Below, one piece after another: positions 30,762 through 31,493 of a DNA stretch of 40,341 nucleotides (its first letter is position 1; each line of letters opens with the position of its first letter). Source of the DNA: a virus (Duplodnaviria; Heunggongvirae; Uroviricota; Caudoviricetes); the IMG/VR virus record IMGVR_UViG_2619619135_000001, positions 1 to 40,341 of that record. One strand, written 5' to 3'. Position numbers and translations under genes: made by a program. Below the pieces are notes generated by a model. It was not told where the DNA came from. It did no database searches and saw nothing but the letters and a program-made list of their open reading frames with translations.

Positions 30762-31170
30762 ACTTCGTTTCTCCTCTTAACCGGGCGGCTGCCCCCGCCG
30801 TTTTCTCGTACTTACTGATAGTGATCTCGACCTTCCCTTCCGGGATAACCGGTCCCCACTCCACCAGCATTCTTTTCACCTGACTGTCGTCTTCCCACAC
30901 ACCCGCGTGGGTCAGGGCGTCAAACAGCGCCTTGTTATAGTTGTCCAGATCGCGGATCCGGTTATCCGGAGGAAACAACACGATCTCCACTGAAGCAGGT
31001 GCCGACGTTGGTTTTGGCAGACGACGTAACTGCTCAACTATTGCTGCACACGCCGCGCTCTGAAATTTTCGCCCCGCCGCGCTTATCAGGCTCTTACCAG
31101 CAAATGCCCCTTTGTTGGGGTGTCGCCAGTACGTGTTCACGCTGGGCGGGAAAGGAAGGATCAACTTCAT
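30754..31170 (-). CDS. rusA: RusA-family Holliday junction resolvase
   Basis: 138-aa ORF with LPFPPSVNTYWRH...RDLDNYNKALFDALTHAGVWEDDSQV, matching the RusA pattern including the catalytic Asp cluster. Confidence 0.8.
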   Translation of the reverse strand: MKLILPFPPSVNTYWRHPNKGAFAGKSLISAAGRKFQSAACAAIVEQLRRLPKPTSAPASVEIVLFPPDNRIRDLDNYNKALFDALTHAGVWEDDSQVKRMLVEWGPVIPEGKVEITISKYEKTAGAAARLRGETKYE

Positions 31171-31493
31171 ACTTTCAGGCCCCTCTCATGTAACCAGTGG
31201 GCTGCACGCAGCCTGGCGTTTTCCTCACCGGCAAGCAGTGCGCGGATAATCCCGACCGCCTCGCTGTCGTCGTCCTTCACCGCGGTATGAAGCGTTATCC
31301 CCCGGGCCACGCCACGCTTTATCGTGATGACGCCTTTTTTCTCCAGTGCGCGAAGATGCTCCACCGCTGTATTCACCGAACGATATCCCAGCATGGTTGC
31401 CACCTCCTGATTGGTTGGCGGGAAGCCACGTTCTTTCTGGTAAGAAATCAGCATATCCAGCACCTGCTGCTGGCATTGAGTTAACGTCGTCAT
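31167..31493 (-). CDS. LexA N-terminal DNA-binding-domain homologue without a peptidase domain
   Basis: Seen: LTQCQQQVLDMLISYQKERGFPPTNQEVATMLGYRSVNTAVEHLRALEKKGVITIKRGVARGITL aligns by eye with the LexA winged-helix domain; no S24 Ser-Lys domain follows. Start taken at the Met overlapping the upstream stop. Confidence 0.6.
   Translation of the reverse strand: MTTLTQCQQQVLDMLISYQKERGFPPTNQEVATMLGYRSVNTAVEHLRALEKKGVITIKRGVARGITLHTAVKDDDSEAVGIIRALLAGEENARLRAAHWLHERGLKV

Follow-up and report, generated by a model that had tools for sequence, protein, structure and literature searches.

E. coli LexA (PDB entries 3jso and 1lea) has an N-terminal winged helix-turn-helix domain and a C-terminal S24 domain that serves both as autoprotease and as dimerization element, with a conserved Ala-Gly cleavage site. 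The natural N-terminal cleavage fragment (residues 1–84) has no dimerization element; it is a weak binder and is removed by ClpXP. Phages and plasmids also encode modulators of the SOS response, DinI and PsiB, which target RecA rather than DNA. The sole characterized phage homologue of LexA that consists of the DNA-binding domain only is gp6 of GIL01, a Bacillus tectivirus; this truncated homologue of 66 amino acids, with 44% identity to B. thuringiensis LexA, recognizes a non-LexA palindrome, GaCACAnnTGTGaC, and turns on the late promoter P3 (PMC6182141).

The window analyzed here, a stretch of 40,341 nucleotides of viral DNA (IMG/VR record IMGVR_UViG_2619619135_000001), encodes on its minus strand (31167–31493; MTTLTQCQQQVLDMLISYQKERGFPPTNQEVATMLGYRSVNTAVEHLRALEKKGVITIKRGVARGITLHTAVKDDDSEAVGIIRALLAGEENARLRAAHWLHERGLKV) a protein that, like E. 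coli LexA, has an N-terminal winged helix-turn-helix domain (residues 1–68, encoded by 31290–31493, minus strand; defined by Pfam, an AF2 model, and Foldseek) and that keeps Ser39, Asn41, Glu45, His46, Lys53, Arg64, and Gly65. It differs from LexA in having neither the S24 autoprotease/dimerization domain nor the conserved Ala-Gly cleavage site, in the replacement of Glu44 by Val, Pro40 by Val, and Ala42 by Thr and the loss of Arg28, in a 35-residue helical hairpin that replaces the C-terminal domain, and in being phage-borne, within a lytic operon. The protein has the same domain content as the 1–84 fragment of LexA, and the BLASTP alignment with LexA reaches the cleavage-site position, but the phage protein runs on into the conserved hairpin, and its gene yields a stable product that is under selection. 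Like GIL01 gp6, it is the product of an early gene of a temperate phage and has a LexA DNA-binding domain without a protease, so that it escapes RecA control; gp6 works beside the host LexA in a phage switch, which we count as a further likeness. However, gp6 lacks the C-terminal hairpin. BLASTP gave no alignment between gp6 and the window protein at E ≤ 100, and gp6 is an independent capture of LexA; what is new in the present family relative to gp6 is the added conserved hairpin and its presence in lambdoid phages of Enterobacterales. DinI and PsiB are unrelated to the LexA-like protein in sequence and fold but possibly share a common purpose with it, the damping of SOS during mobile-element activity.

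The original prediction, made by eye, that the protein aligns along the LexA winged-helix domain is borne out by profile, pairwise, and PDB searches. Residues 1–65 match the Pfam profile PF01726 (LexA_DNA_bind) from end to end (profile positions 1–65 of 65), with a score of 68.4 bits (E 4.5e-19) relative to a gathering cutoff of 23.7 bits. In the BLASTP alignment with E. coli LexA (42% identity over residues 1–90, E 5e-21), the DNA-binding domain is aligned without gaps because each of the four gaps lies beyond residue 68, and the sequence matches in the PDB are LexA proteins only. The NCBIfam LexA equivalog model TIGR00498 is matched over positions 1–91 of 203 with 70.4 bits, which is under its cutoff of 110.95, and residues 1–108 match the whole of PHROG 362 (“transcriptional repressor”; profile positions 1–106 of 106, 197 bits, E 1.1e-58). 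That the protein stops before any S24 autoprotease domain has also been upheld: there is no match to the S24 peptidase domain that holds the Ser/Lys dyad of LexA, the protein ends at residue 108, and no room is left for such a domain because rusA begins at the stop codon of the LexA-like gene, its ATG overlapping the TGA. Since the autoprotease is absent, the protein should, as far as can be predicted from its sequence, be insensitive to RecA-stimulated self-cleavage. The local sequence LLAGEE is aligned by BLASTP with the LexA cleavage site, VAA^GEP, but only 23 of the 40 members of a family alignment retain Ala88, the same number retain Gly89, and the stretch is helical in the model, which rules out a conserved cleavage site at this position. 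This variation across the wider family, together with the missing autoprotease, supports the earlier view that the protein is uncleavable.

The open reading frame has 109 codons including the stop, and the product is therefore 108 residues in length rather than the 109 originally claimed; the strand, on which nothing had been said, is minus. Among 87 loci with a full-length copy of the gene, 53 distinct nucleotide alleles were found, none with an internal stop, and their variable sites are distributed as 12, 6, and 35 over the first, second, and third codon positions. Because variability is concentrated at third positions and internal stops are absent, it can be stated that this is a real gene on which purifying selection acts. 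It is extremely improbable that the gene is a functionless, decaying remnant of a captured lexA; the protein is indeed shorter than LexA and scores under the LexA equivalog cutoff, but the stop-free alleles with their third-position bias, the retention of the full-length architecture, tail included, down to 41% identity in many genera, and the translational coupling of the gene with both of its neighbors contradict such an interpretation.

The gene had been placed in the early (nin-like) region, and its surroundings agree with this assignment. The gene order is cro, a YmfL-like “cII,” a 112-residue ORF, an O-like replication protein, PerC, the LexA-like gene, RusA, KilA-N, DUF968, and Q, so that the LexA-like gene lies between the O-like replication gene and PerC on one side and RusA, KilA-N, DUF968, and Q on the other. 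The upstream neighbor (31493–31987, minus strand) encodes a 164-residue protein of the PerC/YfdN family (Pfam PerC; phrog_1324), and its stop codon is overlapped by the start of the LexA-like gene in the sequence TAATG; direct reading of the sequence shows a Shine-Dalgarno-like run, GGGGG (31498–31502, minus strand), 4 nucleotides upstream of the LexA-like ATG. The downstream neighbor, rusA (30754–31170, minus strand; 138 residues, Pfam RusA), overlaps the LexA-like stop in the sequence ATGA, and the DUF968/HNH-like gene is found at 28967–29962 on the same strand (Pfam DUF968, 271 bits). The LexA-like gene is thus translationally coupled within the cI-repressed early-right operon, and a consensus scan of the minus strand found no promoter-like site between it and the cI/cro control region near 34100. 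This layout suggests that the protein should be made after derepression or on infection and not in the quiescent lysogen. The position of the gene in the operon consequently makes the original proposal that it insulates the prophage from the host SOS response unlikely as stated, since a cI-repressed gene with no promoter-like site of its own is expected to be silent in a quiescent lysogen.

Other features of this part of the window can be recorded here. An inverted repeat at 31946–31972, with 13-nucleotide arms (TTCAATGAATTTC and GAACTTCATTCAA) that are 85% complementary, is located at the junction of the O-like gene and PerC, inside the segment that is co-inherited with the LexA-like gene. 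Two cargo ORFs on the opposite strand (26211–28605, plus strand) lie between Q (28602–28964) on one side and a late terminator-like hairpin and lysis genes on the other; one encodes a 384-residue NA37/YejK-like nucleoid-associated protein, the other (406 residues) has no match in Pfam or PADLOC, and just 1 of 80 related loci has the insert as well. Next to the hairpin, CCCGC-N6-GCGGG at 26105–26128, comes a short run of T residues, TTTTGT, when the minus strand is read; in Salmonella, Cronobacter, and Klebsiella loci this hairpin, there with longer runs of T, occupies the equivalent spot downstream of Q. It is probably the Q-dependent late terminator. PADLOC gave no meaningful match for the LexA-like protein or the nearby cargo ORFs, and nothing in the window was matched by Rfam.

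A single-sequence AF2 model of the LexA-like protein was discarded as too poor (pLDDT 58), and the model discussed here was built on the 40-sequence family alignment (mean pLDDT 85). It contains a winged helix composed of helices 6–22, 28–35, and 40–52 and strands 56–58 and 66–68, a low-confidence linker of residues 70–74, and a two-helix hairpin of residues 75–103 (helices 75–88 and 93–103, pLDDT about 87–89; 31185–31271, minus strand). With Foldseek, the first 67–68 residues of the model superpose on the LexA-DNA complex 3jso with an rmsd of 0.8 Å at 48–49% identity, and the hairpin tail has no structural match in the PDB. The tail is conserved throughout the family alignment at Ala79, Leu or Ile at 82–83, Arg84, Leu86, Ala93, an aromatic residue at 100, and Gly105, with Ala97 and Leu101 each invariant in 40 of 40 sequences. 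The pTM of 0.58 suggests that the hairpin packs apart from the winged helix. Because the hairpin is small, amphipathic, and well conserved, it is most simply interpreted, from a model of the monomer, as a dimerization module that would replace the dimerizing S24 domain of LexA.

Genes that are 95–98% identical to the window gene are present in about 50 phage records, including Shigella phages SfII, SfIV, and SfV (orf42), coliphages mEp460, cdtI, Ayreon, and 2H10, and Stx2a and Stx2c phages, and matching DNA is found in 2648 of 5426 complete E. coli genomes, about half. Homologues of 105–135 residues with 41–98% identity, none with an S24 domain, occur in prophages of Salmonella, Citrobacter, Hafnia, Cronobacter, Klebsiella, Enterobacter, Kosakonia, and Atlantibacter. 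The family is already catalogued and named by homology, with depositors and PGAP using the names “LexA family transcriptional regulator,” “LexA DNA binding domain protein,” and “transcriptional repressor.” A survey of Stx phages, which did not study it further, lists it for 15 phages as “pham 237, pfam01726” (PMC8136144), and a literature search for experimental studies of the PHROG 362 family found only such catalogue mentions.

In all loci that were checked, the LexA-like gene has the replication genes on one side and DUF968 with the antiterminator on the other, and in six of six loci compared across clades, which included those of mEp390, Klebsiella, Salmonella, Citrobacter, and Cronobacter, the DUF968/HNH-like gene is 0–2 genes downstream; PerC, Dam or Dcm, RusA, and KilA-N are optional neighbors. 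In most relatives a stand-alone Dam gene separates PerC from the LexA-like gene; this Dam gene is missing from the window and from SfIV. Six database ORFs (P0023, P0092, P0098, P0121, P0254, and P0321) have both Dam methyltransferase and LexA-like Pfam domains; these are rare singletons, on which account they are doubtful as fusions and may be frameshifts or miscalled genes. Tandem pairs of LexA_DNA_bind stretches are found in proteins of about 140–230 residues (P0132, P0134, P0143, P0158–P0162, and others). The tight conserved linkage, with Dam or Dcm upstream and RusA and DUF968 downstream, and the ORFs with both Dam and LexA_DNA_bind domains could be reconciled with a nontranscriptional role, in which the protein makes protein contacts or acts as a DNA-targeting accessory for adjacent genes of recombination and modification (Dam, RusA, and the DUF968 nuclease). 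We regard this role as quite improbable in view of the conservation of the LexA DNA-contact scaffold, the superposition of the fold on DNA-bound LexA, the rarity of the apparent Dam fusions, and the lack of any detectable domain besides the winged helix-turn-helix.

Some of the neighborhoods have links with SOS control. In the Klebsiella clade, dinI is followed by a hypothetical gene, the LexA-like gene, a second hypothetical gene, and DUF968; in one such prophage (locus L093, 7362–8393), in which the LexA-like protein has 130 residues with an N-terminal extension, a strong SOS box, TACTGTTTATTTATACAGTA, with a −35-like hexamer, TTGAAC, is located directly upstream of dinI. The Klebsiella LexA-like gene therefore appears, from this arrangement, to belong to an SOS-controlled unit with dinI, a known SOS damper, and may itself be SOS-induced; this is the best contextual hint of an SOS-related role. 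In SfIV (locus L005, 6431–6992), rusA is broken into short ORFs without annotation, and a strong SOS box, TACTGTATTTATGAACAGTA (6872–6891), which precedes a variant KilA-N gene by about 100 bp, suggests that this KilA-N gene, perhaps antirepressor-like, is LexA-controlled and adjoins the LexA-like gene.

The recognition helix of the window protein (VNTAVEHLRALEK, residues 40–52; 31338–31376, minus strand) corresponds to PNAAEEHLKALAR in LexA, and in the E. coli clade the recognition motif is RSVN(A/T/S)AVEHL as compared with RSPNAAEEHL in LexA. The DNA-contact residues of LexA quoted in PMC13416735 from Knegtel (1995) are Ser39, Asn41, Ala42, Glu44, and Glu45; at these five quoted positions the window protein has Ser, Asn, Thr, Val, and Glu, three of which are as in LexA. 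In the family alignment, Ser39 and Asn41 are invariant (40 of 40 each) and position 42 is Ala in 33 of 40, whereas Glu44 is never found (Ala in 12 sequences, Val in 11, Leu in 7, Thr in 4, Phe in 3, and Asn in 3) and position 45 is Glu in 22, Asp in 9, and another residue (Leu, Thr, Gly, or Ala) in the remaining 9; the E. coli clade retains Glu45, and the residue varies in other clades. The scaffold residues Lys53, Arg64, Gly65, and Ile66 are invariant across the alignment. Scaffold and a portion of the reading head are like those of LexA, with two positions of the head that depart from LexA and vary among clades. Binding to SOS boxes is plausible given the invariance of Ser39 and Asn41 and the usual presence of Ala42, as set against the loss of Glu44 and the variability of Glu45. 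The hosts are all Enterobacterales and are expected to share one SOS box, so the variation at positions 44 and 45 cuts against a family that consists purely of LexA mimics, and the pattern of contact residues looks like one of diversifying specificity.

These differences between clades at positions 44 and 45, the former never Glu, are what would be expected if the protein were a phage-specific regulator, activator or repressor, that recognizes its own drifted palindrome and has no direct action on the host SOS response. The precedent of GIL01 gp6, which acts on its own palindrome and activates P3, and the constant location of the gene just upstream of DUF968 and Q in all clades are in keeping with this alternative. 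However, the segment that 80 IMG/VR loci have inherited together with the LexA-like gene, equivalent to about 29000–32000 of the window from DUF968 to PerC, is entirely coding, and no candidate operator emerged from it: a search for inverted repeats in 28500–32100 and a comparison of palindromes shared by seven divergent loci together turned up nothing beyond homologous coding positions and the hairpin of the late terminator. Furthermore, a gp6-like role has no obvious place in lambdoid phages, in which Q switches on the late genes. It should be noted that this operator search was a limited one and that operators can occur within genes; with that limit, the lack of a co-inherited noncoding site fits targets in trans, in the host, slightly better than a private operator, and we consider a purely phage-specific regulator somewhat unlikely.

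The cI-like repressor of the window (34187–34879, plus strand), which contains helix-turn-helix and S24 domains and is of the SfII immunity type (99% identity to the SfII cI/cro/cII region), retains its peptidase domain as originally predicted: UmuD-like models were matched, the S24 region has 36% identity to UmuD over 83 residues from GDSM to VKRL, and a close homologue has precomputed HTH_3 and Peptidase_S24 matches. When the window was scanned for LexA boxes with a weight matrix of SOS boxes, whose scores have relative value only, a single strong site emerged, TACTGTATATAAAAACAGTA (34396–34415), inside the linker-coding part of the cI ORF (codons 70–77). This 20-mer is identical at 20 of 20 positions to the umuDC operator of K-12, against which it was checked, and in shuffled sequences 0 matches to it are expected even with three mismatches. 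A scan for CTGT-N8-ACAG with one mismatch was uninformative (20 observed and 12 expected), and the exact 20-mer alone stands out. The box is kept at its position in SfII and Stx2a_1447 (identical), in mEp460 and 1720a-02 (one spacer change), and in a Salmonella salamae prophage; in a Salmonella cI that has diverged far more than the other three aligned alleles, CTGT-N8-ACAG persists beside a 3-nucleotide indel and diverged flanks. The box is a candidate site for the host LexA, the phage LexA-like protein, or both.

With respect to the layout around this box (34373–34438, plus strand), a −35-like TTTACC is separated by a 17-bp spacer from TACTGT, as TTGATC is separated by 17 bp from TACTGT upstream of umuD, and downstream of the box is a Shine-Dalgarno-like GAGGA followed by an in-frame GTG at codon 84; SfII, mEp460, Stx2a_1447, 1720a-02, and two Salmonella prophages all share the box, the spacing, GAGGA, and GTG. 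By-eye inspection indicates that the box may be part of a LexA-gated internal promoter, from which an SOS-derepressed transcript would give an S24-only fragment of cI; no literature on a promoter of this kind within cI was found. Recent transfer from the umuD promoter was rejected on comparison of the flanks, the match being limited to the 20-mer, as was an antisense (minus-strand) promoter, whose hexamers, judged by eye, are weak and are not conserved between alleles.

Among 80 IMG/VR loci with the LexA-like gene, the cI box is present in about 22, and in about 20 the 5′ end of a methylase gene in the late region contains a sequence that resembles a box. This sequence, TACTGTAAAAATAAACAGTG (at 14038–14057 of locus L008, and present likewise in about 20 other IMG/VR loci), overlaps codons 3–9 of a gene for a 350-residue N6/N4 DNA methyltransferase, lies 3.9–5 kb downstream of the LexA-like gene, and is absent from the window; it may have a function, or its likeness to a box may be a coincidence of the coding sequence that was passed on by descent. 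Apart from SfIV, 1 of the 80 loci (L084) has a box upstream of KilA-N, similar to that of SfIV and at the same offset, and about 35 of the 80 have no strong SOS box in the scanned flanks. It is therefore ruled out that every phage with the LexA-like gene has a canonical SOS box in these flanks, and the gene need not be accompanied by a canonical box on the phage.

We conclude with high confidence that the LexA-like protein is a selected, noncleavable DNA-binding protein of LexA type that belongs to the lytic early program; its dimerization, DNA target, repressor action, and physiological role we infer. In the mechanism that we propose tentatively, and with somewhat less than even expectation, residues 1–68 would fold as the LexA winged helix-turn-helix and the hairpin of residues 75–103 would provide the dimerization that is missing from an isolated DNA-binding domain of LexA, which would allow two winged-helix domains to sit on a palindromic operator. 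The protein would appear after prophage derepression or infection, through the cI-repressed early-right operon, and as its targets we favor LexA-box-like palindromes of the CTGT-N8-ACAG type, namely the host SOS operators and the perfect box inside cI, which it would hold under a RecA-independent repression that RecA* could not lift while the host LexA is being destroyed. Action of the protein as such a surrogate of LexA is supported by the SOS-linked contexts (the dinI box of Klebsiella, the cI box of SfII type, and the KilA-N box of SfIV) and is weakened by the replacement of Glu44 in 40 of 40 sequences, the retention of Glu45 in only 22 of 40, Thr42 in the window protein, and the loci without a box, about 35 of 80. 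GIL01 gp6 also counts against it because the specificity of gp6 has changed and gp6 activates transcription. An extension that we consider distinctly unlikely is a circuit with two LexA proteins in lambdoid phages of Enterobacterales, including Stx2 phages, in which the host LexA would gate phage sites (the umuDC-identical operator with umuDC-like promoter geometry in cI, or the box upstream of KilA-N) and the uncleavable phage surrogate, after the lytic genes have been switched on, would close them again together with the host SOS regulon; SOS functions would be shut off in a RecA-independent manner, as would competing prophages and the promoter inside cI.

The umuDC-identical operator inside cI is a more unusual item than the LexA-like family. 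The breadth of the family, with matching DNA in about half of complete E. coli genomes and the gene in serotype-converting phages of Shigella and in Stx2a and Stx2c phages, bears on what these possibilities would mean. If the protein acts on a private operator, it is an ordinary uncharacterized phage regulator. If, on the other hand, LexA-type operators are re-repressed regardless of RecA, the protein would shape the duration of the SOS response during induction and would affect the firing of co-resident prophages and colicins, SOS mutagenesis, and possibly the output of Shiga toxin. [quoted passage not shown]
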